A program made the translations under genes and the position numbers. The notes below the pieces were generated by a model, which saw only the letters and a list, made by a program, of their open reading frames with translations, searched no databases and was not told the origin of the DNA. Shown here one piece after another: positions 17,909 to 46,353 of a stretch of DNA of 64,000 nucleotides; the first letter of the stretch is position 1; every line of letters begins with the position of its first letter. This DNA is from Sulfolobales archaeon HS-7. GTDB lineage: Archaea; Thermoproteota; Thermoprotei_A; Sulfolobales; Sulfolobaceae. The stretch lies in assembly GCA_019704295.1 (NCBI GenBank), contig AP024596.1:1632001-1696000 (forward strand), in the 5' to 3' direction.

Positions 17909-18631
17909 ATGACTCTGAACATACTGGTTGCATTCAAGATAGTGCCTGACGAAACGCTGATAAAGATCTCGGGCGATAAGGTAGACCTCAACGTGCCGGT
18001 TAAGATAAGTACATATGACAAGAATGCCATCGAAGAGGGGCTTGAATTAAGGGAAAAATATGGTGGAAAGGTTATAGGAATTTCAGTAGGGGTTAACGAT
18101 AGGAAGACTATAAGGGAAGCATTAGCGATGGGATTGGATGAGGTCATATCAATAACTCCTAAAACTTACGCTGACGCTCTAGCGACAGCGAAATTGATCT
18201 CTGAGGAAGCTAAAGGGTACGATTTGCTAATTTTCGGAGAGTCAAGTACTGATGGTGGCGATTCCGCGGTAGGGCCAATGGTGGGAGAGATCCTCGGCTA
18301 TCCAGTAATTACATATGTTAGGAGAGTGGAAATACAAGATGGTTTCCTCGTTGCGGAAAGAAACCTAACTCCAGAAGTAGAGGAAGTGAAGGCTAAGCTT
18401 CCCTGCGTTATCTCAGTAACAGGAGAGGCTAACACTCCGAGGATTCCGACGCTAAAGCAGATAATGGAGTCTGGAAAAAAGAAGGTGGTAGCTAAGGAGG
18501 TCGAAATTGCCTCGAGCTCCCGTCTTGTAAACCTTACTCCGTATTTTGTGCCTAGGAAGAAAGTGATAATAGAGGGTAAATTAGAGGAACAGGTACAAAA
18601 AGTAGTTGAGATACTAAGGGGGAACTTATGA
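17909..18631 (+). CDS. fixA: Electron transfer flavoprotein beta subunit (FixA)
   Basis: KIVPD, DKNAIEE, ALAMGLD, SSTDG and NTPRIP motifs. Confidence 0.92.
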   Translation: MTLNILVAFKIVPDETLIKISGDKVDLNVPVKISTYDKNAIEEGLELREKYGGKVIGISVGVNDRKTIREALAMGLDEVISITPKTYADALATAKLISEEAKGYDLLIFGESSTDGGDSAVGPMVGEILGYPVITYVRRVEIQDGFLVAERNLTPEVEEVKAKLPCVISVTGEANTPRIPTLKQIMESGKKKVVAKEVEIASSSRLVNLTPYFVPRKKVIIEGKLEEQVQKVVEILRGNL

Positions 18632-19473
18632 TAGTAGTTTACTCAACTGATCAGGAGAAATTTAAGAAACTTTCAGGATTTGCGCAGACGTTATCAGACG
18701 AAGTAATAGGAGTCGCTCCGTTTCGCGATAATCACGTCAAGAAGCTTATAGTAGCCAAAACGGAGGATTTAGCTGTTGAAACGATATCTGAACAGAGGCC
18801 CTCCCTAGTTCTGTTATCTGAGGGAAAAAGGGAGGTAACTGTAGGCGCTAGGGTTGCTGCCAGGCTTAACGCTCCGTTCTCATCCTCGTGTAATTCCCTA
18901 AAAGTAGAAGGAGGTAAGGTCGTAGTGGAGAGATTGGGATTTGGAGGAGTGGTAAAAGCTACGGTAGAGTTAAGTACTCCTGCGGTTGTTGTAATACAGC
19001 CTCCGGACTCGGAATCAAGGGAGTTCGAAACTGAAATTCACGAATACGAGGGAAAGGGAAAAATGGAGATTCTAAATACCAAGAGGCAAACGTCTACGGT
19101 TAACCTCCAATCGGCGAAGGTCATTGTGTCGGTAGGAAGAGGTATAGGGGGTAAAGAAAACGTTAAGTACGCTGAGGAATTGGCTCAGGTGTTAAACGCT
19201 GCATTGGCAGGGAGTAGACCAGTGACAGCTGAGTTAAAGTGGCTTCCCGAGGACAGACAAGTGGGTCTGTCCGGAACAAAGGTAAGACCCAAGGTTTACA
19301 TAGCTGTAGGAATATCTGGTCAACCTCAACATTTAGCAGGGATGAAGGATTCCGGATTAGTTATAGCGGTAAATAAGGATAAGAATGCACCGATAGTTGA
19401 GAACGCGGACTATACGGTAATTGCAGATGCTATTGAGTTTTGTAAAGCCATTACAGAGGCGCTAAAGAAGTGA
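18628..19473 (+). CDS. fixB: Electron transfer flavoprotein alpha subunit (FixB)
   Basis: VSVGRG, SRPV, QVGLSG, GISGQPQHLAGM and NKDKNAPI motifs. Confidence 0.95.
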   Translation: MIVVYSTDQEKFKKLSGFAQTLSDEVIGVAPFRDNHVKKLIVAKTEDLAVETISEQRPSLVLLSEGKREVTVGARVAARLNAPFSSSCNSLKVEGGKVVVERLGFGGVVKATVELSTPAVVVIQPPDSESREFETEIHEYEGKGKMEILNTKRQTSTVNLQSAKVIVSVGRGIGGKENVKYAEELAQVLNAALAGSRPVTAELKWLPEDRQVGLSGTKVRPKVYIAVGISGQPQHLAGMKDSGLVIAVNKDKNAPIVENADYTVIADAIEFCKAITEALKK

Positions 19474-40268: not shown

Positions 40269-40754
40269 TTAACTTGAAGTAGATGTCTCCGTATCGTTAT
40301 CCTCCGGGGTTACTCTCAACAGAACTCTGTCATTAACTACCCTATTATGTCCCAGATGATCTCTAACATGATATGAGACGCTTATTGTAACTCTATACGT
40401 TCCTTTGTTTAGGTATACGTGAGCTTCAGGGTGGTGCAACGAGAGCGTAACAGTAAGATTTCCTATTACTATCGTCACATTGAATTGCGAGAACGTTGGT
40501 CTGACGACTCCCTCTATTAAATGTATAGTATAGTTACCGCTAGTAGGAATGGTTAATGTAGCGTTCTCAGTCTGATTACCTGTCTCACCAGCAGTAAGGT
40601 TTCCCAGGTTGAAGTATGCAGGGGTAATTTGCGGTCCATTGGAGTGGGCTGAGAAAGAGATATATGCCAAATTCCCAAGAATTCCGGAATCAGCTATCCC
40701 AACACCCGCTAATATTACTGCTCCTACTATTCCTAATATGAGTGGTTTATACAT
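40269..40754 (-). CDS. Secreted beta-rich protein, putative CanA/TasA-like filament subunit
   Basis: Signal peptide, alternating beta-strand pattern, NLTAGETG, RPTFSQFNVTI and LSLHHPEAHVYLNKGTY segments, many sequons. The ORF is solid; the family call is inference. Confidence 0.6.
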   Translation of the reverse strand: MYKPLILGIVGAVILAGVGIADSGILGNLAYISFSAHSNGPQITPAYFNLGNLTAGETGNQTENATLTIPTSGNYTIHLIEGVVRPTFSQFNVTIVIGNLTVTLSLHHPEAHVYLNKGTYRVTISVSYHVRDHLGHNRVVNDRVLLRVTPEDNDTETSTSS

Positions 40755-40812
40755 ATTTCATCTAATTTATGTTCTCTTAACATTCTTTATAAGGCACTCG
40801 TTTCATTTGAGG

Positions 40813-40828
40813 ATGGAACGATGGAACG
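40813..40828 (-). promoter_or_regulatory. Direct-repeat operator CGTTCCAT-CGTTCCAT upstream of the 40754 gene
   Basis: atggaacg x2 on the + strand, about 20 bp upstream of TTATAAAG (40792-40785). Confidence 0.75.
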
Positions 40829-41590
40829 TTATTGCTTATTGACGACTTCGTACCAGATTTTACCGTTTTCTCTTACCTCCTTTACGTAACCCAGTTTAAC
40901 TAATTTCTTAATTCTCCTATATGCGGTTGATTTCGGTAGACCTGTTGATCTAACAACGTCAGCTAACGTCTTCGAACCGTTCCTTATCGATTCAAGTACA
41001 ACTAGATCCCTATCGTTTAGCTGTTCATTGTTTAATTCCGGCTCATCCTCGCGTTGAGCCTTACGTTGTCTTAACTGGGCTATAACGGCATAGGAGAGTG
41101 TACCATTAATTATCACAAGACCTACTATAATTAAAAGGAGCTGAACATTATTTTCACGAGTCGTAGGAATGGTTTGGGAGTACAGTATTTCGAAGCTTTC
41201 CCCATAGAACGAAATGTTATAATATCCGTGAGATGAGTAAAGACCGCATGGTGACGGATTTACATACAGTATATTATACTCTTCGGGGATTAAAACGAAA
41301 TAAGTTACGTTATACGGTTCCTCTCCAACTAAAACTCCTGCTTTAAACTTGGCTACGTAAGTGATTGTTGCGTTAGAGTAAATATGGATTACCGAATCGT
41401 TAATTTGATAGGATGAACCGAGAACCTTAATGTTACTAGCGTTCTCACCTATCAGGTAGAATACCCTCTCATTTGTAATATGAGCGACTACTGTACCATT
41501 ATATAATACAGTTATAGTACTAGCTTTGACCGTAAAGACTAAGGGAAACAGCAATATTAACGATATCAGCACTAGCTTCCAAGAATTCAT
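40829..41590 (-). CDS. Membrane-anchored winged-HTH transcription regulator with extracellular domain (COG2512-like)
   Basis: Signal peptide, sequon-rich beta domain, one TM, then the C-terminal wHTH LADVVRSTGLPKSTAYRRIKKLVKLGYV. Confidence 0.85.
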   Translation of the reverse strand: MNSWKLVLISLILLFPLVFTVKASTITVLYNGTVVAHITNERVFYLIGENASNIKVLGSSYQINDSVIHIYSNATITYVAKFKAGVLVGEEPYNVTYFVLIPEEYNILYVNPSPCGLYSSHGYYNISFYGESFEILYSQTIPTTRENNVQLLLIIVGLVIINGTLSYAVIAQLRQRKAQREDEPELNNEQLNDRDLVVLESIRNGSKTLADVVRSTGLPKSTAYRRIKKLVKLGYVKEVRENGKIWYEVVNKQ

Positions 41591-41636
41591 CCTTGTACAA
41601 TTAATTGTTATCGCTTTTAATTCTATTTCTTACAAC

Positions 41637-41652
41637 TGTTCCACCGTTCCAT
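41637..41652 (+). promoter_or_regulatory. Direct-repeat operator TGTTCCAC-CGTTCCAT upstream of the 41705 gene
   Basis: Same motif, orientation and about 21 bp spacing to the TATA-like TTTTTAGA (41674-81) as the site at 40813. Confidence 0.75.
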
Positions 41653-41704
41653 GAAATGGTTAGGAAATAATGCTTTTTAGAGACGTTGACTAAAAGAGAC
41701 TAAA

Positions 41705-42244
41705 ATGAAACCTGCTATACTCACCGCAATACTAATAATTGCAATAGCGGGTAATATGATACTAGGGTATCAACTTTACGGATATATACATCCCGAAACT
41801 ATCTCGTCTTCGGGAGCCTTGAACTACTCAGAACTGAACGGAACACAAGCGATTAACGTGACGTCAAGTAGTAACTCGTCCTTTTACTTTAGGTATGAGT
41901 TTACAGTTAAACTCCACCTTCCCCATGAGGGAAAATACTGTATAGTAATAAATCCGACGAATTTCTCCTCACTCGTCCTATTAATCTATTTCCAAAATGG
42001 GAATACTGTTTCGTTATCACTTAACGTAACAAAGGCCCAAATAAGCGTCGATCATAAGGAGAATAAGATAAAGGTTTACATTTACGGAAGGATTAATCAA
42101 CTGCCATCCCTTAAAAAAATAATAAGCTCGCTACACTTGAAATTTGTATACTTAGGTCATGACGATCATAATTCAGATCGGAACAATTCAAAGCTTTCGC
42201 CCCCGAGCCTTACAACAGGTAAACGCGAGAAAAAAAGACCTTAG
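41705..42244 (+). CDS. Secreted/anchored beta-rich protein, paralog of 40269-40754
   Basis: MKP-hydrophobic N-terminus; LHLPHEGKYCI resembles LTIPTSGNYTI, and TVSLSLNVTKAQISV resembles TVTLSLHHPEAHVYL. Confidence 0.6.
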   Translation: MKPAILTAILIIAIAGNMILGYQLYGYIHPETISSSGALNYSELNGTQAINVTSSSNSSFYFRYEFTVKLHLPHEGKYCIVINPTNFSSLVLLIYFQNGNTVSLSLNVTKAQISVDHKENKIKVYIYGRINQLPSLKKIISSLHLKFVYLGHDDHNSDRNNSKLSPPSLTTGKREKKRP

Positions 42245-42257
42245 GTAATCGCTACGT

Positions 42258-43448
42258 TTACTCTCTCCTTATTGCCTCTATTGCGGTTAACTTCGCGGCC
42301 CTCCAAGCGGGGTAGATCCCTGCGATAATGCTCAAAACTAGGGCAACTAAGAACGCTAAAATAATTGACTCTACAGAAATAACGGGATGTATACTGAAGC
42401 CTACCCCTGTACTCCTCCTAGCTGCATGTGCACTACCCCCCAAAAATAAGGGGAATGAATCCGAAAGTGCTATTCCTCCGAGAATTCCTAGAACGCCCCC
42501 AATTAATCCTATCATTATAGCCTCTGCTAGAAAAATACCCAACACGTCATGCGTTTTCATTCCTATCGTTTTCATTATCCCTATTTCCCTGATTCTCTGG
42601 TAGACCTTTGTAAGTTGTGTTGCAGCTATTCCTACACCTCCTACTACAAGAGAGATTGAAGCCGTTCCCGTAAGCAAGATGCCGAGACCTGAGGTTATTG
42701 AGGATACAGTTTGAACTATTTGTTGGACAGTGGTAACGGAAACACTGTTTCCGAGTACCGCAGTAATTACAGATGCTGTCTTATTGACGTCATTCACGGA
42801 ATTCACCTTTACGAATATGGCAGAATACGTGTTTCTATCTAACATGTCCATAGCTGCCTGGAGTGACATAAACACGGATGTTCCAGCATTAGTCAAGGGA
42901 CTGAAACCGGACGGAGAGAGGACGCCCACTACCCTTATAGGTACGGAGTCTGTTGCAGACAGTGAGATTATTACCTCCTCTCCTGGCGATATACTTATTC
43001 CAGGCAAGGGATTCGCCACTTGATAGCCTATAACAGCTACGGGCGCCGATGTTACTGGATAAATGCTCCCTGACGATAGGATGACCTGGCCTAGAAATGC
43101 CGTAAGGTTATTAATACCGATTATCGTAACGGTAGTAAGCTGACCCCCGATCTCCACACTGCCTACCCCTAACACCAGTGGATATACCTGAGTTACATAA
43201 GGAAATGAAAGGATCTCGTCAACTGTTGCTTGAGTTAAAACATGTCCCTCAGTGGGTTGAATAAGAATGGTGCTTGGACCTAACGAATCTATATCAGATA
43301 AAATACTTTTGCTTATTCCCTGAGTGAGGGAAACAAGTCCTACTACTCCACCGATTCCAATTGCTACGGCTAATATAGCAAGGATGGCCACTCCCTTTTT
43401 CGAAGTTAGTCCTCTGAATCCGACCCAGAACATGTCCCCTACGTTCAC
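42258..43448 (-). CDS. MacB/FtsX-type ABC transporter permease
   Basis: TM1, large external domain and 3 TM; QRIREIGIMKTIG and IYPAWRAAKL..IEAIR motifs. Confidence 0.93.
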   Translation of the reverse strand: MNVGDMFWVGFRGLTSKKGVAILAILAVAIGIGGVVGLVSLTQGISKSILSDIDSLGPSTILIQPTEGHVLTQATVDEILSFPYVTQVYPLVLGVGSVEIGGQLTTVTIIGINNLTAFLGQVILSSGSIYPVTSAPVAVIGYQVANPLPGISISPGEEVIISLSATDSVPIRVVGVLSPSGFSPLTNAGTSVFMSLQAAMDMLDRNTYSAIFVKVNSVNDVNKTASVITAVLGNSVSVTTVQQIVQTVSSITSGLGILLTGTASISLVVGGVGIAATQLTKVYQRIREIGIMKTIGMKTHDVLGIFLAEAIMIGLIGGVLGILGGIALSDSFPLFLGGSAHAARRSTGVGFSIHPVISVESIILAFLVALVLSIIAGIYPAWRAAKLTAIEAIRRE

Positions 43449-45649
43449 TTTCTACGCCTCATAAGGAAAACGGCTACCGCAATTATCGCTATTATAACTA
43501 TCAGTAAGATAAGGAGGAAGAAATAATGGTAGTGGCTGTGGGGCTGATTTGCGTGTACGTTTGAGCTAACTGCGGGTGAATACACTGTAAATGGTATATA
43601 TATCTCCTCTTCCTTTACCTGATCCAAACTGTTAGTAAACTTTAGAATTACGGGAATTCTATAAGTTCCTGGTTGCGTGGAATTAAGGAGGGTAAAAGCG
43701 AAGGTGAACGTTGATGGAGAGTCAGGACCTAAATTCCCTACATAATAGGTATTTCCACCAACTATAGGGAACTGTGTTGAGTTGTATGTGGCTAGAAGAC
43801 CTTGAGCTACCCCCGTACCGTAGTTTACAATTGTAGCCGTTAATGAGACAAGGGAACCCGGTGTCGGCGTACTGGGTAGAACTGACACTGAGGAGATTGA
43901 GATATTGATTAGCCCTGCTGAGAGCAGACTTAGGGTTCCGCTCTCTTGCTGTATTTGATCATAAATATTGTAAAACGAGATAGCGTATTGAATTATTACC
44001 GATCCCTCAATTGAGGTATAGACTGTTAGCGGAATTACGACTTTCTGACCTGGATTCAAAACGTCAAGTGAGAACACTGTTGAGTTGAACGACGTTTCCT
44101 GTGAGGAGAGTTGTATGGAGACCGATTTGAGAACCTGGGAACCGTTATTCTCAACAGTAACATATGCACTAGAGATAACGCCAGAAGTTATTTGGAATGG
44201 CGAAAGCGATATTACTACGGGATTCGTCTGGACAATTATTGGTTCTACGTAATATCCTAGGGAGAACTCGCTTTCCCCTTGTCCCGTTAATGTATTGTAC
44301 GTTATTACGATCGGAATTTCTACAGGTTGTTGAGATAGTTCCGATGAGACGTATACGCTAAGGTTTTCCAACACGGACTTTCCTGGAGGTATCTCTGATA
44401 TTTCAGGAAGCTGGGTTATGAATGAAATGCCCTGCACGGGCTGGGGAGTAATAGTGACGTTATAAACCGGGGAGTCTCCCCTGTTGTTTACGTAAAAGGT
44501 GATCTGATTAACCGTCAGAGGTTCAAGGGGTTGTGGATCTCCAGAGATGTTAAGAGTGGCCGTCCCAGTAACAAAAAGGGAAAAGTAAGAGGACTGTGTA
44601 ATGGATTGTACTTCTCCCTCGCCTTCGATTACGTACCAGTTTAAAGAAACTGGAAAGGTAAAATAACCTGGCGTCACGTTCCCCGTATTTACGAAGAACT
44701 CGGCCTGAAGGGGTACTCCCTGCCCCTGACTTGTTAATGTTAACGTTATCGTATCTCCTCCTGAGACATTGGTAAATCCTTCAGGTAGAAACACGTTCAC
44801 ATTAACATAACTCAATGTTGGACCTCCGAGGTAATCTATGACTAGCGATACTGGAATGTGATCTTCGTATGGGCCTACGGAACTCTGTTCGAAATTAGCG
44901 TTCACTATCTTACCAAAAACCGTCAAGTTGTTAGATATTAACACTTCATACGTTGTTGAGTAATTATTTCCCGAATAGCTTAACGTAATAGGCATTTGAT
45001 AGTATCCAAGTGTAGTGTTACTGTAAACGGAAGCTAGAACAGTGAATTGAGACGTACCAAAGGGTGGAATGTTGGTTACGTTGAACTCGTTCTTATAGAA
45101 ACGTATGGGATACGTAGACGTTAGGTATACCGTTAAGTTATTTACCTCATCGCCCTCCAGATTGCTTATCAACATGGTAATAGGCACGTCCTTTTCCCCA
45201 GGATAGAGGGGGGTCTGGGACTCTGCGGATACGGAAAAGGAAATGGTTGAAACTTTGACGGCTATTTGCACCGTTTCGACATAGCCAATGCTATCGTTAA
45301 CAAAATACGTGTAGACCTTAAGGTCGTAAGTACCGCCGGAGATACCTTTACTCACCTCCATTTGAAGGGTAAACGAGAAGTTCTCCCCAGGTGTCATTTC
45401 TGCAGTTTTGAACTCCGGTTGTGTACTGTAGTTGTATAGGAATAGCGGTGATGAGTTAACTGGAACGAAAGTGACGTTATAGATAGGATTAGTACCGATA
45501 TAGGTTATTACAATGGTCAGAGGTATGTTCTTCTGACCAGGATAGGCAACCTGACTTTGAGTATCCCAATAACTGTAACCAGAGAACTTAACTATTCCAG
45601 GAGTTAAACTGAGAAACACAGGACTGACAATTATTAGAATAAGAAACAA
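43445..45649 (-). CDS. COG1361 (S-layer domain-like) multi-Ig membrane-anchored protein
   Basis: Repeated PG..V...I.N.G and PG.Y..P..L.Y Ig-like units; C-terminal TM plus RRRK; lies between the ABC ATPase and permease genes. Confidence 0.85.
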   Translation of the reverse strand: MFLILIIVSPVFLSLTPGIVKFSGYSYWDTQSQVAYPGQKNIPLTIVITYIGTNPIYNVTFVPVNSSPLFLYNYSTQPEFKTAEMTPGENFSFTLQMEVSKGISGGTYDLKVYTYFVNDSIGYVETVQIAVKVSTISFSVSAESQTPLYPGEKDVPITMLISNLEGDEVNNLTVYLTSTYPIRFYKNEFNVTNIPPFGTSQFTVLASVYSNTTLGYYQMPITLSYSGNNYSTTYEVLISNNLTVFGKIVNANFEQSSVGPYEDHIPVSLVIDYLGGPTLSYVNVNVFLPEGFTNVSGGDTITLTLTSQGQGVPLQAEFFVNTGNVTPGYFTFPVSLNWYVIEGEGEVQSITQSSYFSLFVTGTATLNISGDPQPLEPLTVNQITFYVNNRGDSPVYNVTITPQPVQGISFITQLPEISEIPPGKSVLENLSVYVSSELSQQPVEIPIVITYNTLTGQGESEFSLGYYVEPIIVQTNPVVISLSPFQITSGVISSAYVTVENNGSQVLKSVSIQLSSQETSFNSTVFSLDVLNPGQKVVIPLTVYTSIEGSVIIQYAISFYNIYDQIQQESGTLSLLSAGLINISISSVSVLPSTPTPGSLVSLTATIVNYGTGVAQGLLATYNSTQFPIVGGNTYYVGNLGPDSPSTFTFAFTLLNSTQPGTYRIPVILKFTNSLDQVKEEEIYIPFTVYSPAVSSNVHANQPHSHYHYFFLLILLIVIIAIIAVAVFLMRRRK

Positions 45650-45654
45650 GCTAG

Positions 45655-46353
45655 CTATTGCCCACTTCGTGTCTCAACACCCTCTATTTTCCCATCCCTT
45701 ATATGTATTATCCTATCACATTTCTTTATCATGTCGGGATCATGAGTTGCCATTACTACAGTAACGTTCCTTTCAACTGAGAGTTGCTTTAGTAGGTTAA
45801 CTATTGCCATTCCAGTTACCGTATCGAGGTTAGCGGTAGGTTCGTCGGCTATTATTATATCTGGATCGTTTACTAACGCCCTAGCTATCGCAACTCTCTG
45901 TTGTTGACCACCAGAGAGCTCGTTAGGTCTCTTATCCTTAAAGTCGAGCATTCCAGGAATGAGGGAGAGAACTTGTATTGCCTTTTCTCTACGTTTCCAG
46001 AACGGAACTCCTGCAGCCGCTAATGGTAGTTCTACATTCTCTAGAGTAGAAAGATAAGATATTAGATTATACGATTGAAACACGAAACCTATTTTCTTGT
46101 TCCTCATGTCGGCCCTTTCGTTTTCGCCCAATTTCGAAACGTCCTTACCGTCAATAATCAGTCTACCGTCAGTAGGATTGTCAAGGAGACCTATTATATC
46201 CAAGAGCGTGGTCTTTCCTGAACCTGAAGGTCCAACTAAGGCCACGAATTCTCCCTTTTCAATTGAGAACGAAACACCTCTTAATGCCTCGTACTCCACC
46301 TTCCTAGTCTTGTACACTTTTCTGATATCTATTCCATTAATTATCGCTGACAT
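45655..46353 (-). CDS. ABC transporter ATP-binding protein (LolD/MacB-type)
   Basis: GPSGSGKT, GFVFQ, LSGGQQQRVAIARAL, ADEPT and THD motifs. Confidence 0.96.
   Translation of the reverse strand: MSAIINGIDIRKVYKTRKVEYEALRGVSFSIEKGEFVALVGPSGSGKTTLLDIIGLLDNPTDGRLIIDGKDVSKLGENERADMRNKKIGFVFQSYNLISYLSTLENVELPLAAAGVPFWKRREKAIQVLSLIPGMLDFKDKRPNELSGGQQQRVAIARALVNDPDIIIADEPTANLDTVTGMAIVNLLKQLSVERNVTVVMATHDPDMIKKCDRIIHIRDGKIEGVETRSGQ

Follow-up and report, generated by a model that had tools for sequence, protein, structure and literature searches.

Do members of the Sulfolobaceae build a cannula-type filament and, if so, which genes would make, anchor and control it? We address this question at a locus in the genome of Sulfolobales archaeon HS-7 (GenBank assembly GCA_019704295.1, contig AP024596.1, positions 1,632,001 to 1,696,000; hereafter the window, a stretch of 64 kb), in which the genes for two small proteins, here called p1 and p3, flank the gene for a membrane-bound regulator. 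To our knowledge, cannulae are known experimentally only from the Pyrodictiaceae, which have no genetic tools, and their function is obscure; the CanX-like genes of the Sulfolobaceae have so far been predicted, and have never been seen making anything. A preliminary description had drawn the three genes at this locus, together with an adjacent operon encoding an ATP-binding cassette (ABC) ATPase, a COG1361 protein and a MacB-type permease, into one system for an extracellular fibre. We conclude instead that the functional unit is a three-gene module (40269-42244; p1, regulator and p3) conserved in the Sulfolobaceae, and we consider it rather probable, as the best explanation of the whole, that this module specifies a regulated, anchored p1 filament to which the ABC operon is unrelated. 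Our analysis draws on genes, sequence profiles and structural models, and in these we observed a likeness of fold, paralogy at the profile level, conserved synteny and motif enrichment.

p1 is predicted to have the fold of cannula subunits

The p1 gene (40269..40754, minus strand) encodes a protein of 161 amino acids (aa) with a single N-terminal hydrophobic segment, seven N-X-S/T sequons and, after the hydrophobic segment, an all-beta model. An exhaustive HMMER search yielded 58 representatives of the p1 family, and an alignment of 51 sequences (A1) was used for the work described below; family members come, among others, from Saccharolobus, Sulfolobus, Sulfurisphaera, Stygiolobus and Ca. Aramenus. 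Pfam and NCBIfam gave only sub-threshold matches to PKD, LapA and Ig-like families for p1 as well as for p3. The AlphaFold2 (AF2) model of p1, made with weights that we take to be older than the CanA structures, had an overall predicted local distance difference test (pLDDT) score of 84.6, with residues 41-150 (40305..40634, minus strand) at pLDDT 93-98 and a poorly placed N-terminus.

The preliminary description had likened this protein to the Pyrodictium cannula protein CanA, and comparison of the model with solved structures bears this out. In a Foldseek search of the Protein Data Bank (PDB), the best five matches were all CanA, CanX or Hyper2 (in order: CanX ex vivo 9H8B, CanA 7UII, K1-CanA, Hyper2 and monomeric CanA), with E values from 6.8e-7 for 9H8B to 3.6e-4. 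VIA-align superposed p1 on CanA 7UII with a Z of 13.3 and a root-mean-square deviation of 2.8 Å over 115 residues, and on four CanA relatives with Z of 12.0, 11.6, 11.1 and 8.7; only members of the CanA family exceeded Z 8. The next matches were the CFA/I pilins (Z 7.5), followed at about Z 6 by carbohydrate-binding modules (CBMs), the bundling pilin AbpA (6.4) and the Saci_0406 thread. Thus, the AF2, Foldseek and VIA results support in silico the assignment of p1 as a cannula-type jelly roll of the CanA/CanX kind and, putatively, as a polymerising subunit, with residues 41-150 forming a jelly-roll body that would carry an acceptor groove.

By hydropathy, p1 residues 1-21 (40692..40754, minus strand) form a probable Sec signal peptide, composed of MYK, a hydrophobic stretch and GIA|DS. 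A canonical AXA cleavage site is absent; the cleavage site given here is a presumed one, and we infer that the peptide is removed. No dedicated signal peptidase lies near the locus, the genome's only match to archaeal signal peptidase I (TIGR02228) being at 1,978,446, about 305 kb away, which agrees with the earlier statement that no SipW-like peptidase is visible in the window.

A conserved N-terminal strand of p1 is modelled in the groove of its neighbour

Directly after the poorly conserved hydrophobic leader, the p1 family has a conserved motif, G-x-L-A-Y-I-S-Y. In p1 this motif falls within residues 25-40 (40635..40682, minus strand; including LAYISFSA), which have low pLDDT in the monomer model and which had been suggested to act as a donor strand. 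We modelled three copies of p1 residues 24-157 with their own alignment, alongside three controls. The p1 trimer scored 0.74, whereas none of the controls exceeded 0.01; its pLDDT did not fall below 83, and repeated runs had 78% or more of their contacts in common. In calibration, the mark for this score was attained by 20 of 30 solved pairs and by 1 of 23 single chains, a yardstick that is only rough for a model with its own alignment and three copies. The three copies were arranged head-to-tail (chain 1->3->2), and the only confident interface was that of residues 25-39/40 of one copy with residues 43-55, 63-67, 77-95, 122-130 and 133-150 of the next. In the model, then, this is the geometry of donor-strand complementation, with exchange of the N-terminal strand between subunits, and the suggested donor strand gains support from it.

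p3 is a remote paralog that appears to be membrane-anchored

The p3 gene (41705..42244, plus strand) encodes a 179-aa protein, likewise with one N-terminal hydrophobic segment and seven N-X-S/T sequons. A word-indexed homologue search with p3 returned only p3 itself, and its orthologues came from a six-frame genome search, in which 13 orthologues were read from related genomes to give a second alignment (A2). BLASTP of p1 against p3 gave no alignment at E ≤ 100. Comparison of the two families by hhalign (A1 against A2) gave a probability of 95.9% with an E value of 6e-9 over 72 columns covering the core strands, and the hidden Markov models (HMMs) of the p1 and p3 families match each other's members at 1e-4 to 5e-6.

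The AF2 model of p3 (pLDDT 76) consists of a confident helix at residues 3-28 (pLDDT 84-92) and a beta body. In a VIA search of 48,161 chains, CanX and Hyper2 ranked first and second (Z 8.7 over 105 residues; next match 6.8), and in a second VIA search CanA came first (Z 9.2), with CanA, CanX and Hyper2 spanning Z 8.6-9.2. Thus, p3 is supported at the level of profiles as a remote paralog of p1 with a predicted cannula-type fold, for which the structural support is modest but consistent.

What distinguishes p3 is its N-terminus. The structural alignment of p3 with CanA begins at p3 residue 37, which corresponds to CanA residue 23; the transmembrane (TM) helix and a short linker would therefore fill the place of the donor strand. 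This helix (residues 3-28; 41711..41788, plus strand) is the best-conserved part of p3, with a pairwise identity of 0.55, compared to 0.37 for the body, and it carries the invariant residues N17, L20, G21, Y25 and H29. In p1, by comparison over the same genomes, the hydrophobic leader is less conserved than the body (0.35 compared to 0.42). Hence, of the earlier picture of two secreted, sequon-rich, all-beta paralogs, the sequons, the beta structure and the paralogy (the last by profiles only) stand, but p3 looks like an uncleaved, membrane-anchored, groove-bearing protein rather than a secreted one.

In one other genus of the family (g3), two p3 orthologues (L036:4060-5016 and L038:9225-10124) have C-terminal low-complexity repeat tails of about 150 aa that are rich in S, G, D and N; these tails are absent from the p3 of the window. 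Members of g3 have p1 and p3 genes that are either separated by 13 kb or not linked at all.

The regulator is a one-component membrane protein

Between p1 and p3 lies the gene for a 253-aa regulator (40829..41590, minus strand), for which the preliminary description had proposed an extracellular domain, one TM segment and a cytoplasmic winged helix-turn-helix (wHTH), and both Pfam and hydropathy agree with that architecture. Hydropathy showed a signal-like N-terminus (hydrophobic over residues 1-30) and one TM segment (residues 147-173; 41072..41152, minus strand), which would make the regulator a type I membrane protein with an ectodomain of about 125 aa (residues 24-146; 41153..41521, minus strand), a putative sensor to judge from the conserved columns in the family alignment. 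The wHTH (residues ~190-250; 40841..41023, minus strand) was matched by HTH_IclR (7.7e-9, residues 196-238), TrmB (1.3e-6, residues 203-251) and MarR_2 (7.9e-6, residues 191-241). The protein has eight N-X-S/T sequons. We found 42 homologues across the Sulfolobales, including SSO3103 of S. solfataricus P2, in which the architecture is conserved, with YNGT invariant in the ectodomain and LPK-T-YRR invariant in the recognition helix of the wHTH. These sequence features support its assignment as a one-component membrane wHTH protein.

We considered the ectodomain as a third CanX-like domain and rejected this candidate, since hhalign against the p1 and p3 families gave probabilities of 8.5% and 1%, as for unrelated domains. 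The same predicted ectodomain fold recurs in clusters of archaeal TM-wHTH proteins in the Atlas; as a lead, this suggests that the ectodomain-TM-wHTH build is widespread in archaea.

Relatives of the regulator stand beside other filament-type genes. Some p1 paralogs form a third class that has diverged further (L077:7768-8600 and L079:8280-9133), and each is directly followed by a gene for a protein of 107-110 aa that has a TM segment and the same wHTH and lacks the ectodomain; CanX-like genes and this regulator family are thus paired independently a second time. The HS-7 genome itself encodes, 12.6 kb past the end of the window (G000:C1:1708629-1708895; L086:1309-1794), a TM-wHTH paralog of the regulator that is 161 aa long (E 1.7e-17), and a gene close to it specifies a prepilin-like signal of class III (KRG|LS). 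Since paralogs of the regulator family are repeatedly paired with filament genes, a regulatory role of this protein is supported.

In two genomes the regulator gene is interrupted. In Sulfurisphaera tokodaii str. 7 (G090, L029:9663-10451) the ectodomain has an in-frame stop (…YVTP*PYSF…) at a nearly invariant P-x-P site, which may reflect a pseudogene or a sequencing error; the orthologue of Sulfolobus sp. S-194 (L026) is intact. In Acidianus brierleyi (G149) the gene is split into pieces about 8 kb apart (L035:9682-10428 and 18468-18686), one with the ectodomain and TM segment and one with the wHTH, and p1 follows the wHTH piece. This split looks like the result of an insertion into the gene.

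p1, p3 and the regulator share an operator-like repeat

A direct repeat, GTTCCAyCGTTCCAT, occurs exactly twice in the 64-kb window, against an expectation of 0.12: once on the minus strand (40813-40827) and once on the plus strand (41638-41652). These copies, upstream of p1 and of p3, are also the sole perfect matches to GTTCCANNGTTCCA in the whole genome of 2.15 Mb. The p1 copy, GTTCCATCGTTCCAT, begins 2 nucleotides (nt) past the stop codon of the regulator; a TTATAAA box follows after about 20 nt, and the p1 ATG after 59 nt. The p3 copy, GTTCCACCGTTCCAT, precedes the p3 ATG by 53 nt and a TATA-like box by about 20 nt; it is placed in the intergenic region from which the regulator and p3 diverge, and so also falls within the regulator's own divergent promoter region. 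The same scan of window and genome found no such repeat upstream of the ABC operon.

The hexamer GTTYCA recurs in direct or inverted pairs in the orthologous promoters. The mean number of GTTYCA/TGRAAC per 120 nt was 1.8 upstream of p1 and 2.0 upstream of p3, against means of 0.37 in front of other open reading frames (ORFs) and 0.15 over all windows, and two or more hexamers were present in 47% of the p1 and 85% of the p3 upstream regions, compared to 8.6% of controls; these counts come from related genomes, and hence are not independent. p1 paralogs that are far from the triad also carry the motif upstream. Thus, the position and conservation of the motif support a conserved operator-like repeat common to the regulator and both small genes, which the regulator may bind and through which it may control them. 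Archaeal activators typically bind upstream of the TATA box, and the position of the repeats upstream of TATA boxes suggests activation.

Each of the two repeats is accompanied by a further inverted or near-palindromic element, TGAAAC at 40801-40806 after the p1 repeat and CCATGAAATGG at 41652-41662, which overlaps the end of the p3 repeat; these may be a third half-site.

The triad is conserved in the Sulfolobaceae

If the three genes form a unit, they should stay together in related genomes. In six-frame searches of 151 genomes of the order, 18 of them in the family of HS-7, we found p1 in 16 and p3 in 14 of the 18 Sulfolobaceae genomes. We then compared gene neighbourhoods at 20 related loci with p1 and/or p3. 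In the window and at 9 of these 20 loci the p1, regulator and p3 genes lie side by side, and at 2 more they are loosely linked (10-13 kb); these 11 triad-bearing loci cover 7 genera besides that of HS-7, and the triad is conserved in at least 10 Sulfolobaceae genomes. The genomes with these loci include those of Sulfolobus acidocaldarius, Sulfurisphaera tokodaii, Sulfolobus sp. A20, Ca. Aramenus and Acidianus brierleyi (the A. brierleyi p1 copy was identified via its genome and its p3 record). In most genomes p3 and the regulator gene form a divergent pair. S. acidocaldarius has a rearranged gene order but keeps the three genes together, with exactly one p1 and one p3 orthologue, encoded by adjacent genes (AAY81523.1 and AAY81524.1; the p1 orthologue is Q4J6Q8), and the regulator AAY81522.1. 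The gene-neighbourhood comparison therefore upholds one half of the earlier proposal, the linkage of the two small genes with the regulator; the other half, concerning the ABC operon, is taken up at the end. The p1 profile was found in 13 of 15 genomes of its own family, in 9 of 12 genomes of one other family of the phylum (f31), which we infer to be the Thermocladiaceae, and in few genomes elsewhere.

This distribution ties the locus to published work. Sleutel et al. (2025, Nat Commun, PMC12518558), who solved cannulae and used HHsearch and AlphaFold to find homologues, confined CanX proper (homologues at the level of HMMER) to the Pyrodictiaceae, and predicted 'CanX-like' proteins, over 100 in number and for the most part from Sulfolobaceae and Thermocladiaceae, among them three distant homologues in S. 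solfataricus and two in S. acidocaldarius with consecutive accessions (WP_011279025.1 and WP_011279026.1). Their modelled CanX-like oligomers suggest donor-strand complementation, for which they called for experimental validation. The earlier view that nothing cannula-like had been described in Sulfolobales must therefore be given up. p1 and p3 almost certainly belong to this published set, because p1 has the same fold and the same distribution over two families and because their adjacent S. acidocaldarius orthologues match the consecutive accessions. The same paper contains neither the word 'regulator' nor 'helix-turn-helix' and no gene-neighbourhood analysis of CanX-like proteins. In the literature on SSO3103, Q4J6Q8/Q4J6Q7/Q4J6R0, STK_10590 and the inferred tags Saci_2236-2239 we found nothing beyond the accession list in PMC12518558, and two Makarova surveys, on 'dark matter' and on membrane proteins, contain no account of this neighbourhood. 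To the fold and distribution already reported for the CanX-like set (PMC12518558), the present analysis thus adds the triad with its own membrane-spanning regulator, the operator-like repeat common to p1 and p3, and the paralog with a membrane helix in the place of the donor strand.

A model for a possible regulated, anchored filament

We propose that p1, as a member of a CanX-like branch of the TasA superfamily, would be exported by the Sec pathway, and that removal of its signal peptide would free residues 25-40 to insert into the jelly-roll groove of the next subunit, yielding a chaperone-free, donor-strand-complemented extracellular filament. p3 would be tethered to the membrane as the end subunit, taking up a p1 strand and so anchoring or nucleating the filament; we consider this its most likely role, in preference to that of an intramembrane partner of the regulator. 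The ectodomain of the regulator would sense an external cue, and its cytoplasmic wHTH would bind the GTTYCA repeats upstream of the p1 and p3 TATA boxes and in its own divergent promoter. We offer more tentatively, and hold to be somewhat doubtful, a fuller version in which this is a self-contained, switchable cannula-type filament system of the Sulfolobaceae, including S. acidocaldarius, and the first example of a regulated and anchored system in the cannula lineage: the wHTH sensor would activate p1 and a groove-only, TM-anchored paralog via GTTYCA, the polymer would be tethered beneath the S-layer and assemble at acid pH without Ca2+ bridges, and the filament would have gone unnoticed because the switch is off in laboratory culture.

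Several observations weigh against a p1 filament. Searches of all PDB sequences by phmmer with p1 or with the p1-family HMM found no CanA, CanX, Hyper2 or TasA at E ≤ 10 (with phmmer and family HMMs, both p1 and p3 gave chance matches only), and neither p1 nor p3 matched the Pfam family of TasA, Peptidase_M73 (PF12389), at E ≤ 1. The fold check on p3 is divided: the cannula proteins come first by VIA, but their Z of 8.6-9.2 is only about 2 above that of generic CBM6 jelly rolls, and Foldseek alone placed no CanA among the first 50 matches, returning jelly rolls of CBM6, lectins and Cry toxins instead. The p1 trimer may have scored well because the predictor had learned the solved CanA filaments, so that its score speaks for likeness and not for binding. 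If the p1 signal peptide were uncleaved, p1 would stay tethered. No such filament has been reported in the literature on the well-studied Sulfolobus species, and p1 of the second family (f31) is accompanied by neither the regulator nor p3. Moreover, the stop in the S. tokodaii 7 regulator and the split of that of A. brierleyi argue that the module is dispensable in culture.

Nor are the Ca2+ sites that drive CanA assembly evident in p1. Cannulae have three Ca2+ sites; the alignment of 51 p1 family members has no conserved acidic column (no invariant or nearly invariant D or E), and residues 22-150 of p1 include seven acidic residues. The Sulfolobaceae are acidophiles, in which carboxylate-Ca2+ bridges would be unlikely.

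The alternative that survives best, although we consider it unlikely, is a signalling module that makes no polymer, in which the regulator and p3, possibly with p1, form an envelope sensor resembling ToxR/ToxS, p3 would contact the regulator within the membrane via the conserved polar face of its helix, and the jelly rolls are lectin-like or ligand-binding domains or monomeric surface glycoproteins. In ToxR/ToxS- and CadC-type regulators, a single polypeptide combines an extracytoplasmic sensor, one TM segment and a winged-helix DNA-binding domain, and accessory proteins of the ToxS and TcpH type act beside them; here, likewise, the regulator gene adjoins that of p3, which is small, crosses the membrane once and has an ectodomain rich in beta structure. 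In keeping with such a module, the p3 helix is more conserved than its ectodomain, with N17, G21, Y25 and H29 on one helical face, the TM consensus of the regulator also has polar residues, the p3 and regulator genes are divergently paired as described above, and the jelly rolls resemble the sugar-binding modules CBM6/CBM35 at Z ~6-7. The topology, however, is inverted with respect to ToxR and CadC (ectodomain N-terminal, wHTH C-terminal), and the wHTH is of the IclR/TrmB/MarR type, not OmpR. Furthermore, p1 is far closer to the filament subunits of the CanA family than to any CBM (13.3 compared to 6-7), and its free N-terminal strand is conserved and, in the model, occupies the groove of the neighbour. 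The lone p1 paralogs keep the upstream motif, and so look like regulated products rather than parts of a sensor.

Less probable still is that p1 is a non-polymerising surface glycoprotein, anchored at its N-terminus by an uncleaved signal anchor and like CanA in fold only by shared ancestry. The missing AXA site, with cleavage presumed, the lack of conserved acidic columns that could bind Ca2+ and the silence of the Sulfolobus literature on any filament would all fit such a protein. But the hydrophobic segment is the least conserved part of p1, unlike the helix of p3, and the strand that follows it is conserved and is modelled as exchanged between subunits.

A regulated, anchored p1 filament thus fits the locus better than either of these alternatives, and it has parallels in known systems. 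The closest is that of CanA, CanX and Hyper2 (Pyrodictium abyssi, Hyperthermus; PDB 7UII, 9H8B, 9BAB), with which p1 (Z 11-13) and p3 (Z 8.6-9.2) share a jelly roll, and p1 also a Sec-type N-terminus followed by a strand modelled in the groove of the neighbour; as in that system, there is no chaperone, usher or dedicated signal peptidase near the p1/p3 locus. The differences are that the identity of p1 and p3 to these proteins is about 13-17%, without a match at the level of HMMER, and that Pyrodictium loci are clusters of CanX paralogs with no regulator mentioned (PMC12518558), whereas p1 and p3 are found with one. The S. acidocaldarius thread (Saci_0406, 7PNB) and the Pyrobaculum AbpA bundling pili (7UEG) are donor-strand-complemented filaments of the TasA superfamily from related organisms, but p1 matches them with a Z of only 6.0 and 6.4, compared to 13.3 for CanA, and they represent a different family.

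The tapA-sipW-tasA locus of Bacillus subtilis is the nearest parallel in organisation: a major donor-strand subunit is encoded beside a minor accessory protein proposed as anchor or nucleator of the fibre, under the control of the cytoplasmic regulators SinR/SlrR. The module described here would resemble it in being a small locus with dedicated transcriptional control and a putative major subunit beside a paralog-like, putatively minor protein. It differs in that there is no Peptidase_M73 match and no SipW-like peptidase in the locus, in that the wHTH regulator spans the membrane, and in that p3 is an anchor by presumption.

S. acidocaldarius is genetically tractable, and its regulator, AAY81522.1, together with the GTTYCA boxes offers a handle for asking whether these archaea build a cannula-type filament. 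Should they do so, the module would reveal by what means a donor-strand polymer made without chaperones is held on a cell whose envelope consists of a membrane and an S-layer only. It would likewise reveal the way in which such a polymer forms at pH 2-3, conditions under which bridges between Ca2+ and carboxylates are expected to break down.

The neighbouring ABC/COG1361 operon

As the preliminary description had stated, the two small genes flank the regulator and adjoin an operon of ATPase, COG1361 and MacB-type genes; all six ORFs were present at the positions it had given, and Pfam agrees with the assignments. The operon lies outside the module and comprises genes for an ABC ATPase (45655..46353, minus strand; ABC_tran 1.1e-35), a COG1361/CARDB protein of 734 aa (43445..45649, minus strand; Pfam CARDB) and a MacB_PCD/FtsX permease (42258..43448, minus strand; MacB_PCD 4.1e-21, FtsX 2.7e-22).

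That the operon serves as an export and anchoring platform for a p1/p3 fibre, all six genes forming one regulated locus, is very improbable and largely refuted by synteny: the genes are adjacent here, with 13 nt between the stop codons of p3 and MacB, and COG1361/CARDB proteins are surface proteins, but the operon is convergent with p3, and hence the two are not co-transcribed, no MacB or COG1361 match lies within about 9 kb of a p1 or p3 homologue at any of the 20 related loci, the operator-like repeat is missing upstream of the operon, and CanX loci need no export platform (PMC12518558). An orthologous ATPase-COG1361-MacB operon is intact elsewhere (67-73% identity for the ATPase, 46-53% for the permease), and in the three genomes in which both were located (G143, G090 and G055) it is about 171, 161 and 771 kb from the triad. 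Thus, the operon is conserved in its own right and independent of the module, next to which it happens to lie in the HS-7 genome, and its removal from the system disposes of a false lead.

The COG1361/CARDB orthologues in related genomes are open frames of about 850-880 aa. They come out of tblastn as two overlapping pieces, which suggests variation in repeat number.

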